DNA from: Candidatus Bathyarchaeia archaeon
GTDB taxonomy: Archaea > Thermoproteota > Bathyarchaeia > 40CM-2-53-6
Length of the DNA: 64,000 nt
Assembly (NCBI GenBank): GCA_050013255.1
Contig: JBEKFP010000001.1
Location: forward strand, 672,001 to 736,000
Reading direction: 5' to 3'
Shown here: piece after piece, positions 39,814 to 52,461 of the stretch
Position numbering within the stretch: the first letter of the stretch is position 1
Layout of the letters: the number at the start of each line of letters is the position of its first letter
Translations under genes and position numbers: made by a program
The notes under the pieces: model-generated
Database searches by the model: none
Told to the model about the DNA's origin: nothing
What the model saw: only the letters and a program-made list of their open reading frames with translations

Positions 39814-39839
39814 ATCTGTGCGCACCATTAGCCCCGCAC
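39814..39839 (+). repeat. dispersed repeat copy
   Basis: TGTGCGCACCATTAGCCCCGCAC. Confidence 0.85.
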
Positions 39840-43846: not shown

Positions 43847-44204
43847 CGGAGTCTGAATAGTCAGTGAGATGAGTGAAAGTGCTCAGCAAACTTCTTGCGC
43901 TATATGAGACGGGAAACTTACTCTTCGGAAGTCTGAGGAGAGGAGCCGACATGACGACTAGCCATCCACACAGTACGCACCAAGCCACGAGACTACCCCG
44001 CCCTGCACAGCGCAATTGTAGGCTCGTAATTCAAGTACGCGAACCCGATCTTGCGAATACAAGAGATTGCCTGGTTCAAATTTGGCTGCCCGCACCACCA
44101 TACCGGGGATATTACATAGGGCTCATTTTCTGATGGCCACGTGGAAAAGGCTTAGGGGACGTGGAAATCCACATGTAACCACGTTGTCAAGTTTGAGAAA
44201 CCAA

Positions 44205-44733
44205 TCAGATGCACGAGGGTTCGAGCAAGGGGGGCATAGTACCATAGAGTCCAGAAATGGCAACTGCGGTCAACCAGAGACAGTTTAGCGAATGCTGCTG
44301 AGAAAGAACTAACGCAGTTATTGACTTACCCATCCCGGCTTGCACAGCAGGGTCGCTTTTCGTTATCTTATCAAGATCGACGTGAACCCACATGTTACGG
44401 TAGTCAGTTCTGATCTTGTTCAACACACACGCTATCTGCGAAGTGATCACATTCTTAGAACCTGAGTAGCTGATTGACTCCTCCCACTTCATTCCTTTCG
44501 CTTTATTCTTGCCCATTCCATGATCTAGGCAATAGAATCTATGTGCAGGTTCCGCACAAGTTCCACTGACGATGGCCGCGGAAGCAAACATTCCACTAAA
44601 GTAAGCCTGAGTCACCTGGTCCCAGAGTTCATCTACAACGACATCAATTGATGGACCAAGCTTGAGGCCCTTGATGTTGGACTCCGCCTGGCTAGGGTTT
44701 ACCTGAGAAACGAGTTGTGTCGAATCCGTTCAT
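44205..44733 (-). pseudogene. HEPN/DUF4145-like gene, apparently frameshifted at its start
   Basis: frame open about 38 codons upstream of 44615, with ATG 44733 one base out of frame; RNMWVH (RxxxxH). Confidence 0.5.
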
Positions 44734-44824
44734 CTCGTCTTGTTAGAGAGCCAGCTACTTAATACTAGGCCGCGGGAAATTTCACGCGTCTGAAGCATTC
44801 CACAACGATAAAGGAGAAAGCGAT

Positions 44825-47800
44825 ATGGAGAGCAAAGAAATAGTTCCCAAGTCATATCATTTCACAGATCCAACTCAAGAATGGATCTACAAGAAACTGC
44901 TACTTCTAGTAGGCCCTGGTCCAGCCTTATTCTATCAAGATGCTTGTTCCATCATGGCAGAGTCTATTGCTCTTCAATCAACAACCCACTTAGTGGGGCA
45001 TCTCCTTCGCGAGATCGAGAGTGCGCTCCGGGATGTGTTGGAGCCGATAGTGGTACATATCACTCCTGCGCACGATAAAGACGAATCTGCCAAACACAAG
45101 GCCGAGATACTCGCAATTCTTAGCTACTTGGACATACCGGACTCTGATCCCATCGCAGTTGCGTGGATGAAGCTAGCCGGTAGAGGATCAGACTATGCTC
45201 TTCACGCGCGAGCCCATCGCAGAGATCTCTCAGCACCGCGTCCGATTGATCAGGACTTTGTTCGCTTTTGGGATGATACTCAGATGATCCTAAAAATTGT
45301 ACTCGACAAATTTGAGACGCATTATGCGTCCGTATTTGACATCCTAGACAAGACACTCGTTACGAGTAGTCCGAGTATTGCTGACATAAAACAACTCCGA
45401 GCGCATGTACCCAATAACATGGTCACATGGAGCTACTTTTTCGGCAGACTTCAAAGCACAAAATGGCTGAGTCAGCTGAAACTGGCAGGATTCTTTGATG
45501 CTCCGCCTGATCCTCAACTTGATGACGAAAAGAAAACGATCAGGATGATACTATGGCCTCAGTCACAATATTTGGCCAGGATAGCATCAGAGAGCCCAGT
45601 TGAGGTTGTTAAAATTATCCTCGATATACCAGAAACAGAGAATCTCTTTGTTCATTCTGACCTTGTTGACGCAGCTCTAGCGATGCCACCGGTCCTCGCA
45701 GCAGAATGGGCAAAGAAGGAAATAGACTGGATCGAGAAGCGCGATAGGATCAACTTCCTGTTACCACAGAAGCTAGGCGAGTTGATCGGACATCTGGCAA
45801 GAGGCAAACAAGCCGATGCAGCCCTTGAGCTAACCAGATCTTTGCTAGGCACATTCTCCTCGGAGGATGAGAGAAAAGGTATTTCTCCGTTGGAGCCACA
45901 AGCTCGACTTGATACATGGCATTACGCGCAAATCCTCCAGACGGCAGTTTTGGACCTTATAGCAGCAGCGGGAGAAAAAGCGCTCGTCCTGTTCTGCGAG
46001 CTCCTCGAATCGGCAATTCAGACGTATGTAAAAAGTAGCGGTCCTGAGGATTACTCCTATCTGTGGAGGCCAGCGGTCGAAGACAGTGAACAGAACCTTC
46101 TCTCAGATCCGAAGGAATTGTTGGTGTCCGCTGTTCGCGATTCAGCATTTCAGATTATCAAAATGGACTTGATACGCCTGCCGGCGATTGTAGGTCAATT
46201 AGAGAAACGAAAATGGCTGATTTTCCAACGCATAGCTCTTCACCTATTGCGGACATTTCCATCTGGCTATGATACTCTGATCGCAGAGTGGCTCGCAGAT
46301 CAACTCAAGTTCGGTAACCTTGGCCTTTGGCATGAATACTCGCTACTTGCCCAAGATCATTTTGGTGACCTGTCCCTTGAGGACCAAGACAAGATCCTCA
46401 AATGGATTGGCGATGGCCCTGATGTCAAGAAATTCAATGCTATGGAAGGAAACCGCACAGGCAAGGCTCCATCTAAAGAAGAGATCGAGCATTATGTGAA
46501 GCGTTGGCGGTTGACATATTTAGCATCCATTCATAGTTCATTGCCAGAAAAGTGGATAACTCGTTACGATGAATTGAAGAAGGAGCTAGGCGAACCAGAA
46601 CATCCGGAATTCTTGATATACAGTGGTGGGGGTTTCGGCCCTACAAGTCCAAAGAACGCCCAAGAATTGCAGTTGATGAGTGCCGCGGAAATCGTGAGTT
46701 TTTTGAAGACTTGGCATCCTAATGGCGGATTTCTTGCATCTTCTCCAGAGGGCCTTGGACGTGTATTGTCTGGAATTGTGTCTTCAAATCCAGCCCGTTT
46801 CGCGGAGGTAACTAACCTATTCCGAGAGATTGAACCAACCTACGTTCGGGCTTTACTCACAGGTCTCCGTGAAGCGGTTAAGCAGAAGCATTCCTTTGCT
46901 TGGGCTACAATTCTTGAGCTTTGCCAATGGGTAATGGAACAACCTCGCACCATTACGGATCGAAAGGATAATTTCGAGTCCGACATGGGTTGGGTATGGA
47001 CGAGGAAGACTATCGCCGATCTGCTCTCCGCAGGTTTTGAAACTGGTCCCGGCGAGCTACCATATGATCTTCGGAACAAAGCGTGGAACGTGCTTGAGCG
47101 GATTACTGAAGACCCTGATCCCACTCCGGAACAAGAAAAGGCGAACTATGATACTCCGAATATGAATCCTTCTGAACTATCCATAAACTCAGTTCGCGGA
47201 GAAGCAATTCATGCGGTTGTACGCTACGCACTTTGGGTGAGACTACATCTGGAAAAGGAAACAGATAGCGAGCAACGTGTTGCACACGGATTTGATGAAA
47301 TGCCTGAAGCACGAGCAGTTCTAGACGCGCATCTCGATCCCGCGCGCGAATCTGCTTTAGCAATAAGGGCCATTTATGGGCAATGGTTCCCATGGTTGCT
47401 TCTACTCGATAAACGGTGGGCCTTTTCCAAGGTTTCCTCGATTTTTACACATGAGGCCAATCTCCGAGATTTCCATGATGTTGCGTGGGAGGCGTACCTT
47501 GTCTATTGTCCTCCATACAACAACGTCGTGGATGTGCTTCATGAAGAATATGCGGAAGCCGTAGAGCGGCTTGGCGAGGCTGTATCCAAATGGCGCTACA
47601 TCGGTGCCGACCCGAGGGAACGGTTAGCAGAACACCTAATGATACTATACTGGCGCGGAAAGTTAAACCTGACAGACGTCATTCTACGACGCTTCTTTGA
47701 AAGAGCCTCCGATAACACGCGCGGTCATGCCTTGTCCTTCGTTGGACGAGAGCTATCCAACGTCAAAGAGGAAATTCAAACTTCAACACTCGAAAGGCTG

Positions 47801-48229
47801 ATGATGTTATGGGAACACAGACTTGAAACCTCTGAGTTGTCGAAAACAGGATCAATCAAAGTAAGGGAACTGGCGGCTTTCGGTTGGTGGTTCGCCTCGA
47901 ACAAGTTCGATAACAAATGGGCACTGACCCAGTTATCGGCAATTCTAATGCGTGTAGATCAAGTGGAAGCTGAACATCAGGTCATCAAGCGCTTGGCATA
48001 TCTCGTTCCAAAGTTTCCAGAGCAGGTGATCCAATGTCTTTCCCTAATGATCACAGAGAGCAAGGGATCCTTGCTCGTTCTTGCTTGGCGTGAGCAGGTG
48101 CGTTTAATTCTTGGCGCTGGCGCCAATAGTGAAAATCCCAAAGCACGTGAGAACGCTGTAATTCTGATCAATCGACTAACTGCGCTTGGACATTTGGAGT
48201 TCCGGGACTTGATAAACAAGACTAGCTGA
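44825..48229 (+). CDS. 1134-aa putative defence protein: HEPN-like N-terminus plus long helical region
   Basis: HLLREIESALR...LHARAH, then W/L-rich helical repeats; no P-loop seen. Confidence 0.55.
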   Translation: MESKEIVPKSYHFTDPTQEWIYKKLLLLVGPGPALFYQDACSIMAESIALQSTTHLVGHLLREIESALRDVLEPIVVHITPAHDKDESAKHKAEILAILSYLDIPDSDPIAVAWMKLAGRGSDYALHARAHRRDLSAPRPIDQDFVRFWDDTQMILKIVLDKFETHYASVFDILDKTLVTSSPSIADIKQLRAHVPNNMVTWSYFFGRLQSTKWLSQLKLAGFFDAPPDPQLDDEKKTIRMILWPQSQYLARIASESPVEVVKIILDIPETENLFVHSDLVDAALAMPPVLAAEWAKKEIDWIEKRDRINFLLPQKLGELIGHLARGKQADAALELTRSLLGTFSSEDERKGISPLEPQARLDTWHYAQILQTAVLDLIAAAGEKALVLFCELLESAIQTYVKSSGPEDYSYLWRPAVEDSEQNLLSDPKELLVSAVRDSAFQIIKMDLIRLPAIVGQLEKRKWLIFQRIALHLLRTFPSGYDTLIAEWLADQLKFGNLGLWHEYSLLAQDHFGDLSLEDQDKILKWIGDGPDVKKFNAMEGNRTGKAPSKEEIEHYVKRWRLTYLASIHSSLPEKWITRYDELKKELGEPEHPEFLIYSGGGFGPTSPKNAQELQLMSAAEIVSFLKTWHPNGGFLASSPEGLGRVLSGIVSSNPARFAEVTNLFREIEPTYVRALLTGLREAVKQKHSFAWATILELCQWVMEQPRTITDRKDNFESDMGWVWTRKTIADLLSAGFETGPGELPYDLRNKAWNVLERITEDPDPTPEQEKANYDTPNMNPSELSINSVRGEAIHAVVRYALWVRLHLEKETDSEQRVAHGFDEMPEARAVLDAHLDPARESALAIRAIYGQWFPWLLLLDKRWAFSKVSSIFTHEANLRDFHDVAWEAYLVYCPPYNNVVDVLHEEYAEAVERLGEAVSKWRYIGADPRERLAEHLMILYWRGKLNLTDVILRRFFERASDNTRGHALSFVGRELSNVKEEIQTSTLERLMMLWEHRLETSELSKTGSIKVRELAAFGWWFASNKFDNKWALTQLSAILMRVDQVEAEHQVIKRLAYLVPKFPEQVIQCLSLMITESKGSLLVLAWREQVRLILGAGANSENPKARENAVILINRLTALGHLEFRDLINKTS

Positions 48230-48234
48230 AGCCT

Positions 48235-49083
48235 ATGAAGACAGGTTATTACTATTTCGCGATAGAACCGCTGGTTGAAAAATATGAAGATGTGCCAGAA
48301 GTAAAACCGCTGATCTCAGTACCTGTTAAGACGAGGTCGAAAACATTCGAAGTCTCATTCTTTGCCTTGGGCAACCAACTGCACATGCTTAGGGTTGCAG
48401 TTCCGGACCTGGTCGAGGATAGGATTTCAGAAGATGACGCAAAGGTTGTTCAGACCCTAAAGGAACATGCTCTCTCAGTGTTACGCATAACGTACGACCA
48501 TGGTGTCAGTATGTTTCCAATCCATTGGTGGAGCTTCGCTGAGGAAGGAAAGGAATACAGAGCGAGCATTTCGATACGGGAGCAAATACAGGAAACATTC
48601 CGCATCAATGCGAGAAACATACGGAACGTTTTCGTGAGTACCTTTCCGCTGAGATATCAGATTACGCTCATATCGGATTCGCAGGATAGGAGAGTCCCAC
48701 TACAGTATCGATACCTGTCACTTTACAAGATACTCGAACTCGAGTTCAAGGTAGGTGGCAAATGGAATCGAATGGCTCTCAACGAATTCTTGTCTAGATT
48801 TGAGAAGGAGTTCCACAAACTTCACGACGAGAAATGCATGCTGGGGAATTATGTGCATCGCTTGCGAGACAAATGTGCTCACTTCAAGACTGGAAAGGGC
48901 ATTATTGGCGTTACTCAGCTAAGGGGCAAAGATACCGAAGAGGTTACCAAATTCCTACCATTTATGACAGACATGTGCTCAACCCTTCTAAACGAGAAAT
49001 ACCAAGACAAAGGATTCTCTATCGTAAAAGCACAACAGTATTCCGAGTTCTTAGCGAGAGGGCAGGACGTACCCATTAACTAA
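48235..49083 (+). CDS. HEPN-domain (ApeA/MauJ-like) protein
   Basis: YLSLYKILE and LRDKCAH (RxxxxH). Confidence 0.6.
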   Translation: MKTGYYYFAIEPLVEKYEDVPEVKPLISVPVKTRSKTFEVSFFALGNQLHMLRVAVPDLVEDRISEDDAKVVQTLKEHALSVLRITYDHGVSMFPIHWWSFAEEGKEYRASISIREQIQETFRINARNIRNVFVSTFPLRYQITLISDSQDRRVPLQYRYLSLYKILELEFKVGGKWNRMALNEFLSRFEKEFHKLHDEKCMLGNYVHRLRDKCAHFKTGKGIIGVTQLRGKDTEEVTKFLPFMTDMCSTLLNEKYQDKGFSIVKAQQYSEFLARGQDVPIN

Positions 49084-49440
49084 ACTTGCCAACCACGTGG
49101 TCATAGTCGGGATCTAGCGTTGCTGTAGATTTCCAGAGACCTTCCATTTCGAACTCTCTCTTTGAGATACCAGAATGTATTCCTCTGAGAAAGAATTTCC
49201 ACATTTGATCTCTCTCACTCCGGGTGCGGGTCGATCCTTACACGTGGATTTCCACGTCCCCTAAGCCTTTTCCACGTGGCCATCAGAAAATGAGCCCTAT
49301 GTAATATCCCCTGCACCACCATACCCATCTCCTCGCTTCGCTCGCCCTTGCTACGCTCTACCACTCGCTCCCAACCCCTCTCCCTCCCACACGTAGACAA
49401 AATCATGAAATCACACACTCAGGAAATAGCACACAAAGGC

Positions 49441-50244
49441 CTACGAACCATTGTCCAATTCGCTTTCGTAATCTCTGTAACCGGCACGTCTCTCGTCAAG
49501 TCGTTCCTTCAGTCTGTGCCGCGAGCGCCACTTGACATACGACTTGTCAATCCATCTGCGCGAGGCTTTGGGGAGTCCAGCTGCCAACTCCCTGTGGCTA
49601 AGGGCATTCATCGGCAACCACCAACTTGCTCCACTTCTCCCAACCAAACCATCCACAACACTTTCGGCTGCGCTGGCAAACCAATCTAAGGTGTGGATTC
49701 TAAGAAACGTCCTATACTGATAGGCCAATTGCCGCAGCTTCTTTTGTGCCATTGATGATAATTCATTTCGGCGCCCCATGAACAACAATCCGAACGGGTG
49801 CTCTATACCAGGCATCAGCTCTTCTGCATACTCCCTGTGGTCGTCAACCCAAGTATGCCAGTTTCTTATTTGACCGATAGCATGTGTCAAACGAGCGGAC
49901 GGATCGCCTTCCCTATTGAAAAGGTGGAAATGCGGAGGTTCAATCTCTGCCAACGACCATTCAAGACCAAGGCTGCCTGCGTCAAACCAAACAAAATCAA
50001 TCTCGTAATCGCTCCCAAGTCTCACTTTCGAATAGAGCGGAGAAGCGCCGCCTAAGCGAATGAATCCGTTGAAGAAGTAGCTATGAGAAGCCAAGAATGA
50101 GTGAATACTTTGCTCGCTTGCATTCGAGTCCAAAAGCTTGATGTACCTTTTGATGTCTTCCTTCACTTTCTGTCCAGTTAGCGCTCGCACTTTTGGATCG
50201 ATGGTTTCATCGTCTGTATCCGTCATGATGTCCTCGGTCGACAA
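49441..50244 (-). CDS. Shedu-like (DUF4263) PD-(D/E)XK anti-viral nuclease
   Basis: SEQSIHSFL, IDF, AEIEPP, LTHAIGQIRNW, GRR, IHTLD. Confidence 0.7.
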   Translation of the reverse strand: MSTEDIMTDTDDETIDPKVRALTGQKVKEDIKRYIKLLDSNASEQSIHSFLASHSYFFNGFIRLGGASPLYSKVRLGSDYEIDFVWFDAGSLGLEWSLAEIEPPHFHLFNREGDPSARLTHAIGQIRNWHTWVDDHREYAEELMPGIEHPFGLLFMGRRNELSSMAQKKLRQLAYQYRTFLRIHTLDWFASAAESVVDGLVGRSGASWWLPMNALSHRELAAGLPKASRRWIDKSYVKWRSRHRLKERLDERRAGYRDYESELDNGS

Positions 50245-50930: not shown

Positions 50931-50964
50931 GTGTTGTTGTGGGTAGGCTGGTGTGCACACACAC
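50931..50964 (-). repeat. dispersed repeat, left arm of inverted pair
   Basis: GTGTTGTTGTGGGTAGGCTGGTGTGCACACACAC. Confidence 0.8.
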
Positions 50965-51027
50965 GACGAAACTGTAGCACTAAATATGCCCAGGTTTCAA
51001 GATAGACAGCCGCGTTGAGGTGTTCTC

Positions 51028-52410
51028 GTGAGAATTGAGCCGCGACTTGAGTTACTGATACTGATTGCTGTTTTCTTTCTCATCCTTGTGCCTAATGTAC
51101 GCGCTTTCACTTTCGAGCCTCAAGTAGGCGTTTGGGGGGACGATTCCTCAAGAGGAAATATGGGAGTGTCTGTCGAGATTCGAACCCATATCTACCCTAC
51201 GAATCCGGGGGACTTCCAGTATTTCTGGGTTGGTGATAACCTGAACAATGGTGCGTTCATTCAGTTCGGCTACATTTACGAGCCGGGATATTATTGCTTG
51301 AATGGCCAGACGGTTGGCGGGAAGTTCACATGTCTAGGTGATTCCGATCACATTGGAGGGTCGGATGCGCGTTGGGAATGGCAGTATTGGCCCAATAGTA
51401 ATGTTAATGACTTCTCTTATGGAAAAGGACCAGCAAACTCGGCCGGACTTGATGGGACATGGCACAAGTATTCAATTGAGCCGAACACTAGAGGAGGTTG
51501 GAGTTTCGTACTTGATGGTCGAGAGGTCTCGTACGTTACAAATGTGTGGACCCGATCCAAGGACGCAGCGTATTTTGTGGCGGAGAAGGGCAGCAATACG
51601 TACGCAACGCTTGGCCGATTAGGGCCAGTCGAATTTAGAAACCTAGCGTACCTCAAAGACGATGGCTGGCACTATGCAACAACGCTGTCTGCGCTGGTAG
51701 GGTGCGCTGTAAACACAAATTGCAACATCAATATCCCCTACGGCGTAATGTCGGAGGGCGCAGGTATTGTGATCGCAGGGAGCGGGATTCAGCGACCGAG
51801 CGACCTCGATTTGTTATGGACTGGGGTTGTTGGTGGCGTGACGTTGACTCTTGATCTGCCGAATAATGTTACTGTCAGAATAGATGACCAGTTTATGCGA
51901 TCTGGTTATTCTCAGCTGTCTCTTTCACGAGGACCGCATACGATCGAGGTACCTCAAGATTCCGCCATCGATTCGAATAACAGGCTTAGGTTCGACCATT
52001 GGAGTGATGGGTCAGTTTCTTTGAATCGGACGTTTACGTTAAACTCTGACACAACACTCAAGGCAATCTATGTTACGCAACACTGGCTAACTATCAATTC
52101 AGTTGTGCCCATGAACGGTTCAGCGTGGTATGACGAAGAATCAACCGTATCTTTCTCGAAACCGACTTCAATCCTGATTCATGCTGACCTCGGAATCCTA
52201 GGTGGTCAGTGGACATTTGACGGATGGTACGAGGACGGAGTCTATTTAACGAGTTCAACCAGCAGTTCCATTGTTATGGATAGACCGCACACTTTGCAAC
52301 TTCACTGGCATCAGAATTACGCAATTCCCCTTGCGATTGTGGCACTTCTGGCTCTGGTGGGTTTTGTTACGGCCTTGGTAGTCAAAAGAAGACGTGAGAA
52401 GTCAGAATAG
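51028..52410 (+). CDS. G1-peptidase-like secreted protein with beta-repeat stalk and TM anchor
   Basis: FWVGDNLNNGAFIQFGY, YFVAE, FDHWSDG/FDGWY repeats, TM-KRRR. Confidence 0.6.
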   Translation: MRIEPRLELLILIAVFFLILVPNVRAFTFEPQVGVWGDDSSRGNMGVSVEIRTHIYPTNPGDFQYFWVGDNLNNGAFIQFGYIYEPGYYCLNGQTVGGKFTCLGDSDHIGGSDARWEWQYWPNSNVNDFSYGKGPANSAGLDGTWHKYSIEPNTRGGWSFVLDGREVSYVTNVWTRSKDAAYFVAEKGSNTYATLGRLGPVEFRNLAYLKDDGWHYATTLSALVGCAVNTNCNINIPYGVMSEGAGIVIAGSGIQRPSDLDLLWTGVVGGVTLTLDLPNNVTVRIDDQFMRSGYSQLSLSRGPHTIEVPQDSAIDSNNRLRFDHWSDGSVSLNRTFTLNSDTTLKAIYVTQHWLTINSVVPMNGSAWYDEESTVSFSKPTSILIHADLGILGGQWTFDGWYEDGVYLTSSTSSSIVMDRPHTLQLHWHQNYAIPLAIVALLALVGFVTALVVKRRREKSE

Positions 52411-52427
52411 CGAGGCGCGCCTAGAGT

Positions 52428-52461
52428 GTGTGTGTGCGCACCACTGATACCACAACAACAC
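52428..52461 (+). repeat. dispersed repeat, right arm of inverted pair
   Basis: GTGTGTGTGCGCACCACTGATACCACAACAACAC. Confidence 0.8.

Follow-up and report, generated by a model that had tools for sequence, protein, structure and literature searches.

A probable casposon derivative without its core genes and with defence-like cargo at a tRNA-like site in a Bathyarchaeia genome

The element and its landing site

A 64,000-nucleotide stretch of the genome of a Candidatus Bathyarchaeia archaeon (GenBank assembly GCA_050013255.1, contig JBEKFP010000001.1, here C1:672001-736000) was analysed and is called the window throughout. It contains a casposon-like element of 5,207 bp (44105-49311), which lies between the two copies of a 14-bp duplication. 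The host genome, labelled G000, is 2.46 Mb in size, consists of three contigs (C1-C3) and is 100% complete; other labels of the form G### denote genomes and those of the form L### metagenome stretches. A region of 10.4 kb that includes the element is letter-identical in four independent assemblies, and the element is therefore not an assembly artefact. Coordinates of its features are given in Table 1.

A repeat search delimits two inverted arms of 74 nt that are identical at 73 of 74 positions (99% complementary) and are separated by 5,059 nt. The 16-nt tip GGGGATATTACATAGG occurs at just two places in the window, both of them element ends, against a chance expectation of 0.01, and all four occurrences of ACGTGGAAA in the window fall within the arms, two per arm and 20 nt apart. 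Touching both tips is a 14-bp direct repeat, CGCACCACCATACC on the left and TGCACCACCATACC on the right, which matches at 13 of 14 positions and is spanned by a 16-nt direct repeat in the repeat search. Both the near-identical terminal inverted repeats with internal repeats and the 14-bp duplication at the element edges had been described in an earlier sequence-only reading of the window, and both hold.

The left copy of the duplication overlaps a T-loop-like motif, GGTTCAAAT, and an acceptor-like 3' end with a terminal CCA. No tRNA gene was found at this place by ARAGORN, run on the window, or by Rfam at E<=10 on positions 43850-44110, and the landing site mimics a tRNA without being a tRNA gene. 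The tRNA-like 3' end of the sequence-only reading thus stands, as a mimic with its CCA.

The interior contains three open reading frames (ORFs) of 136 amino acids (aa; minus strand), 1,134 aa and 282 aa. Searches of Pfam, PADLOC and NCBIfam link none of the three to Cas1, PolB, a DDE transposase or a recombinase, which bears out the earlier description of an interior free of transposase, Cas1 and PolB genes. Apart from a probable C-terminal relic of 28 codons described below, no Cas1 was detected in the element by Pfam, NCBIfam or tblastn, and Pfam and PADLOC revealed no integrase gene within or beside it. Because the two defining genes, those for Cas1 and PolB, are absent, the element is not an autonomous casposon.

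Table 1. Features of the element and its edges (positions in the window).
Feature	Position	Strand	Basis or remark
Look-alike of a tRNA T-arm and acceptor 3' end	44073..44097	+	T-loop-like motif, acceptor-like strand, CCA; proposed 'leader' for the integrase
Left copy of target-site duplication	44091..44104	+	Consensus CGCACCA+7 from 48 related ends
Left terminal inverted repeat, 74 bp, with two ACGTGGAAA	44105..44178	+	Repeat search; family consensus
136-aa ORF with GTG start, doubtful gene	44205..44615	-	ORF call only
1,134-aa cargo protein, putative distant DSR1 relative (non-SIR2 part)	44825..48229	+	PADLOC Dsr1
282-aa MauJ-family protein	48235..49083	+	Pfam PF17419
Probable casposase C-terminus relic, 28 codons	49104..49187	-	tblastn
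Right terminal inverted repeat, 74 bp	49238..49311	-	Repeat search
Right copy of target-site duplication, first base altered (TGCA...)	49312..49325	+	13/14 against left copy

Cargo genes

Residues 184-1078 of the 1,134-aa protein align with positions 305-1175 of the PADLOC Dsr1 model (PDLC04166; E 1.6e-53), a match that includes a counterpart of the large C-terminal helical region of DSR1. No Pfam family and no SIR2 domain were detected in the protein with Pfam, and it appears to be a distant relative of DSR1 that lacks SIR2. Its 171 full-length homologues are scattered over bacteria and archaea, some of them in surroundings that resemble islands and include methylase, PIN and integrase genes. 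The N-terminal 200 residues are conserved, with R62, H131, R132 and R139 invariant, and are modelled as an all-helical domain (residues 1-200, pLDDT 87) that has no fold match in the PDB at E<=0.001.

The 282-aa protein is assigned to the MauJ family (PF17419, Pfam E 9.9e-07; protein atlas score 0.98). Its model (pLDDT 88) combines a beta-rich N-terminal domain with a helical C-terminal domain, and the latter carries an R-x4-H motif in which R211, C214, A215 and H216 are invariant in 36 homologues. Since Foldseek returned no PDB fold match for this model at E<=0.001, it is the motif that suggests a possible HEPN-type nuclease. The protein atlas also points to a pPIWI-associated nuclease family (score 0.90), which we treat as no more than a lead.

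No relatives of the 136-aa ORF turned up, and Pfam, PADLOC and NCBIfam assign it to no family; relatives of the element have another gene at its position, and it may not be a gene. Neither it nor the 282-aa protein resembles the genes that L202, a related element described below, has in the corresponding places. The DSR1-like and MauJ-family genes most likely form an antiviral module, a predicted defence role that is drawn from sequence comparison. The earlier statement that the element carries only putative defence genes therefore survives for the 1,134-aa ORF through its PADLOC Dsr1 match; the R-x4-H motif makes it suggestive for the 282-aa protein, and it is doubtful for the 136-aa ORF.

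Relatives of the element and their casposase core

The 74-bp end was matched in 12 of 105 genomes of the host order and its conserved 23-nt core in 97 metagenome stretches. All public contigs with the same ends are labelled Bathyarchaeota or Bathyarchaeia. Nearly all non-redundant metagenomic ends (54 of 58) abut a CGCACCA+7 site, 29 in direct orientation and 25 as the reverse complement, the other four being degenerate. Positions 1-7 of this target are almost invariant and the remaining consensus is AGaGACC. A T-loop-like motif lies upstream in 26 of the 35 proximal-type flanks that were scored. Conservation across sites reaches just ~25 nt upstream, covering the T-arm and the 3' strand of the acceptor, which indicates that the landing pad is a tRNA mimic and no gene. 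Complete relatives include L128 (7.3 kb) and L094+L160 (14.9 kb), each with a 14-bp duplication matching at 14 of 14 positions, and an element of 5.7 kb in G030 (L060 3511-9197, equal to G030:C2:91511-97197) whose duplication matches at 13 of 14.

Two relatives, L094+L160 and L103, combine the same ends with genes for a Cas1 of 397-415 aa, a HEAT-repeat protein, a small protein, an HNH endonuclease and a PolB of 866-875 aa. Their PolB gives weak Pfam matches to both PolB families, and the casposon PolB sequence has no match in the PDB. A third, L202, has the same core gene order and places an orthologue of the 1,134-aa cargo gene (56% aa identity; 66% nt identity over 2.7 kb) between its end and the core; that end is 80-81% identical to the ends of the window element. 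An autonomous cas1 and polB element that shares the terminal repeats of the window element thus exists in all three, and the refuting condition set in the sequence-only reading, a lack of casposase-bearing elements with these repeats, does not apply. No DDE transposase or recombinase was found among the ~30 proteins in or beside elements with these ends that were tested against Pfam.

Among solved structures, the Cas1 of these relatives is closest to 6OPM (E 5.7e-91, residues 16-410), the casposase of M. mazei (PMC6977970), with an alignment that extends to residue 410 and so covers the C-terminal extension; the best CRISPR Cas1 gives 2.7e-30. By these matches the Cas1 proteins of the L094+L160, L103 and L202 group are casposases. 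Members of this cognate group are 62-72% identical to each other. An intact cognate casposase (70% identity) is also encoded in G051:C5, from the same genus as the host, together with a HEAT gene but only the first ~130 residues of PolB, and G051 has an additional copy of the end far from any cognate cas1.

The M. mazei casposase generates 14-bp duplications, requires a 5'-CGCA, depends on ~30 bp of upstream tRNA-Leu sequence, and joins ends reading ...TATATCCC-3', that is, with tips starting GGGATATA (PMC6977970, PMC4779613). The casposon tip sequence, the ~14-bp duplication and the tRNA 3' end set out in the sequence-only reading agree with these reports. The window element has the same features, with its tip (GGGGATAT...), a CGCA-type 14-bp duplication and an adjoining tRNA-like 3' end, and its insertion fits integration by a family 2 casposon. 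As its ends are common to elements that encode a casposase, PolB and HNH, sequence evidence supports its membership of the casposon lineage.

A probable casposase relic and graded loss of the core

A segment of 28 codons lying ~50 nt inside the right end aligns to the extreme C-terminus of the casposase. In tblastn it matches the Cas1 fragment of L140 (E 4.7e-05, 46% identity) and the casposase of L160 (7e-04). Its stop codon is at the position where intact genes end, a further in-frame stop lies 10 codons upstream of the segment, and its orientation relative to the cargo gene is that of cas1 in L202. The segment is probably a relic of a casposase gene, a grade no higher than this because the match is short. 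With this relic beside its right end, the window element is read as a gutted casposon.

Other relatives retain different parts of the core. Residues ~241-401 of Cas1 persist just inside one end of the G030 element, and the C-terminal half of Cas1 in L085, which carries a complete type I restriction-modification system, and in L140, which carries a CHAT-NB-ARC-TPR protein. C-terminal stubs of PolB are found in L111, with a Schlafen-domain protein, and in L128, with TIR-domain, SIR2-like and TPR proteins. No stub was detected in L133, which carries a SIR2 protein. One end family and one target rule are thus shared by a decay series that runs from a full Cas1 and PolB core through PolB-truncated and Cas1-stub-only forms to coreless ones, and the window element is at the far end of this series. 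Recognised antiviral genes occur in many members (type I restriction-modification, Avs2, SIR2, TIR and CHAT-STAND), the window element contributing the DSR1-like gene.

The G030 sister element has, in place of defence genes, a zinc/manganese ABC transporter (ZnuABC), an iron-dependent repressor and a peroxiredoxin. This shows that the cargo of the end family is not limited to defence.

Taken with the shared ends, target and relic, the window element is very probably a deletion derivative of a family-2-type Bathyarchaeia casposon. Under this interpretation, casposase would have linked the ends by their 3'-OH groups (tips ...ATATCCCC-3') to the target, one end per strand and 14 bp apart, at a site starting CGCA just downstream of the leader-like look-alike of a tRNA T-arm and acceptor, and repair of the gaps would have produced the 14-bp duplication. 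We infer such casposase chemistry for the site at 44091-44104 from its likeness to known casposase products. An internal deletion would have removed the ancestral core of casposase, HEAT partner, small protein, HNH and PolB, leaving both 74-bp ends, the 28 C-terminal casposase codons and the cargo.

Mobilisation in trans or decay in place

Several observations weigh against parts of this account. The cargo protein is distant from DSR1, scoring 23.6 bits against the NCBIfam Dsr1 equivalog, whose cut-off is 1,400, and it lacks SIR2. The relic match is 28 aa in length, with an E-value that comes from a small search space and about eight queries. No cognate casposase, PolB, HEAT or HNH gene was detected in the host genome in searches with the cognate proteins. 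The two casposases that the host does encode are just 42-46% identical to the cognate group, their elements have (CA)n tips in one case and GC-rich tips in the other, and the end family of the window element is absent from the vicinity of the host cas1 genes. End copies in the host genome are the two ends of the window element and two solo relatives, so the element itself is single-copy. Its cargo protein is found on many contigs; on each of the 21 that were read it has the same site and neighbours, and four of them match the window at 100% identity. With one copy, and one site in all 21 contigs, movement is nowhere directly evident.

A search of 23 genomes of the genus with the flanks revealed no orthologous empty site; the short T-arm and site motif and the end of the neighbouring element were all that matched. 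A paralogous unoccupied junction does exist at C2:279761-279813. There the T-arm mimic, the site and the end of the neighbouring element are contiguous, and 49 of 53 positions match the rebuilt empty site.

The sequence-only reading had proposed mobilisation in trans and recent activity. Neither finds support in the single copy, the shared site on every carrying contig or the missing cognate casposase. The same facts favour decay in place, in which a complete casposon with the DSR1-like gene inserted at the site and later lost its core, the Cas1-less form having never moved and being an inert scar. The copy is single in a genome that is complete, the relic implies that cas1 was formerly present, and each Cas1-less relative has a different stub, as independent decay would predict. 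Other findings fit an inert scar poorly. The ends of the window element are identical at 73 of 74 positions, against roughly 80% for the end pair of the autonomous L094+L160 as read from the sequences, and three of the four complete Cas1-less elements (the window element, G030 and L128) have ends that are 97-99% identical. The same cargo pair occurs at a different site in L194, where no cas1 lies within 10 kb, and the same-genus G051 has both an intact cognate casposase and an end copy remote from it. We therefore place decay in place slightly short of an even chance. Mobilisation of the window element in trans has an even chance at best, and the two are about equally likely.

An integrative element of a tyrosine or serine recombinase, with the tRNA-like 3' end as attachment (att) site and the 14-bp repeat as att core, is very improbable. 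The 3' ends of tRNAs are classic att sites of archaeal integrative elements (PMC6563490), and some neighbouring units have inverted 14-bp sites between inverted arms that resemble recombinase sites. The window element, however, has no recombinase in or beside it, its 74-bp inverted ends exactly touch the repeat, the length and CGCA start of that repeat are those of casposase products, and its relatives with the same ends encode a casposase and no recombinase. Least probable of all is a derivative of a DDE insertion sequence, like a miniature inverted-repeat transposable element (MITE), with ends that merely resemble those of casposons: archaea often contain non-autonomous DDE derivatives that have inverted ends and target duplications, but DDE elements seldom duplicate 14 bp at a single conserved sequence, and the casposase core is encoded in three elements that share the ends seen here. 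Both origins were rejected, as no such gene is present among the ~30 Pfam-tested proteins mentioned above, and a casposon derivative is the reading that we retain.

Other casposases and insertion units in the host genome

One of the two solo ends, C1:254351-254421 (84% identity), adjoins the gene for a 1,407-aa Avs2 antiviral STAND NTPase (PADLOC E 2.6e-179; region C1:250055-254278), and the other, C2:744624-744697 (77% identity), adjoins a TBP gene and an E1/E2/JAB operon. Each is preceded by CGCACCA+7, and neither has a partner end in the host genome.

The first host casposase element, C1:1330273-1346555, is a PolB-less casposon of 16.3 kb with inverted ends of ~150 nt starting (CA)n and a perfect 14-bp duplication, CGCACCATTAGACC; it encodes a 407-aa casposase and an AIPR (abortive-infection) protein, among others. 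In the second, C3:228085-239040, a 404-aa casposase stands beside an HNH endonuclease and a TIR-domain gene. This element has GC-rich tips, a perfect 14-bp duplication and an extra copy of its end inside.

Junctions of the form (GT)n, 14-bp CGCACCA+7 site, (CA)n occur at ~70 sites genome-wide. They are clustered, for example at C1:1323000-1358600, C2:279000-285300 and C3:221400-239100, and those in the window are at 39821-39834, 50931-50965 and 52437-52450. The junctions read as ends of a second, far more numerous family of (CA)n-tipped units with the same target. Four complete units of this family, with perfect 14-bp duplications, were delimited at 0.6, 4.2, 6.2 and 16.3 kb. About 12 of 42 left ends of the (CA)n type contain a T-arm mimic and a fresh CGCA site ~30-50 nt inside the tip (examples are C1:630745-630810, C1:1355410-1355475 and C3 around 222307-222369), so that these units bring their own landing pad. 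Nested insertions into them leave stacks of ~60-bp stubs.

At 50931-52450 in the window, a single 460-aa gene lies between (CA)n/(GT)n tips, and the two flanking 14-bp sites are inverted rather than direct. Outside these sites are inverted CACAACAAC arms, and the same inverted layout surrounds part of the C3 casposase element. Simple casposition is insufficient to produce inverted sites, which need a secondary inversion or another mechanism.

The right neighbour of the window element (49441-50244) is a Shedu nuclease gene in a different type of unit that starts directly after the duplication, at 49326. Further copies of the end of this unit (CTCCTCGCTTCGCTCGCC...) follow CGCA sites at other places in the genome, with paralogues at C2:279761-279794 and C3:225963-226078. 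On the host genome ARAGORN reports 7 tRNA genes without and 30 with its intron search, and many of the 'introns' are long or odd. Host tRNA genes appear to be intron-rich or poorly modelled, and real tRNAs are accordingly harder to tell from mimics.

Implications

The CRISPR adaptation machinery is presumed to descend from casposons, which have been portrayed as self-sufficient and self-replicating. In the open literature searched we found no description of non-autonomous casposons, of Bathyarchaeia casposons or of casposons carrying recognised defence systems. Tandem arrays, solo ends and casposon-borne nucleases are already known (PMC4779613, PMC6563490). Our analysis suggests that a Bathyarchaeia lineage moves defence genes on casposons and on their stripped-down derivatives.

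If casposases do move such units in trans, this would be a route by which defence genes spread in a major uncultured archaeal lineage. It would also provide a natural instance in which a Cas1 enzyme inserts foreign DNA beside a leader-like sequence and duplicates a short repeat, which is the step required by the casposon-to-CRISPR scenario, and the 74-bp end, the 14-bp site and the 25-nt leader mimic would be concrete substrates for testing that scenario. A more far-reaching view, which we consider unlikely as it stands, is that Bathyarchaeia casposases act in trans as integrases and place units that carry genes but no enzyme of their own at portable tRNA-like 'leaders', the 14-bp 'repeat' being duplicated with each insertion. 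The window element would then be one still-mobilisable unit that ferries defence genes, and the whole would be a living intermediate between transposon, integron and CRISPR array.

Comparison with known systems

The closest known systems are the family 2 casposons of M. mazei (e.g. MetMaz1FA1A3-C2, with the casposase of PDB 6OPM) and AciBoo-C1 of Aciduliprofundum boonei. Shared with them are a tip of the form GGG(G)ATAT..., a 14-bp CGCA duplication, insertion exactly at the 3' end of a tRNA-type sequence with dependence on an upstream T-arm, tandem pile-ups and solo ends. The autonomous relatives of the window element further resemble family 2 in having a casposase with a C-terminal extension, a HEAT/HTH protein, HNH and PolB. 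The window element differs in having no casposase, PolB, HNH or HEAT gene and just the 28-codon casposase stub. Its ends are 74 bp long, whereas theirs are 31 bp, and its target mimics a tRNA and has the CCA encoded, whereas theirs is a real tRNA-Leu or tRNA-Pro gene. Its Bathyarchaeia host and its defence-like cargo module also set it apart.

In keeping the ends and duplication of an autonomous family while lacking the transposase, the window element is like non-autonomous DNA transposons, the MITE-like or deletion derivatives that are moved in trans. It differs from them in its length of 5.2 kb, its intact cargo genes and its single copy. With defence-associated sirtuin 1 (DSR1) the 1,134-aa protein shares the C-terminal region, and a conserved helical N-terminal domain takes the place of SIR2. 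Tn7-like elements and pipolins (PMC11551731) likewise insert site-specifically, accumulate in tandem at one kind of site and carry a variable defence cargo; the present elements differ from them in that their integrase is a Cas1-type casposase and their target a mimic of a tRNA 3' end.

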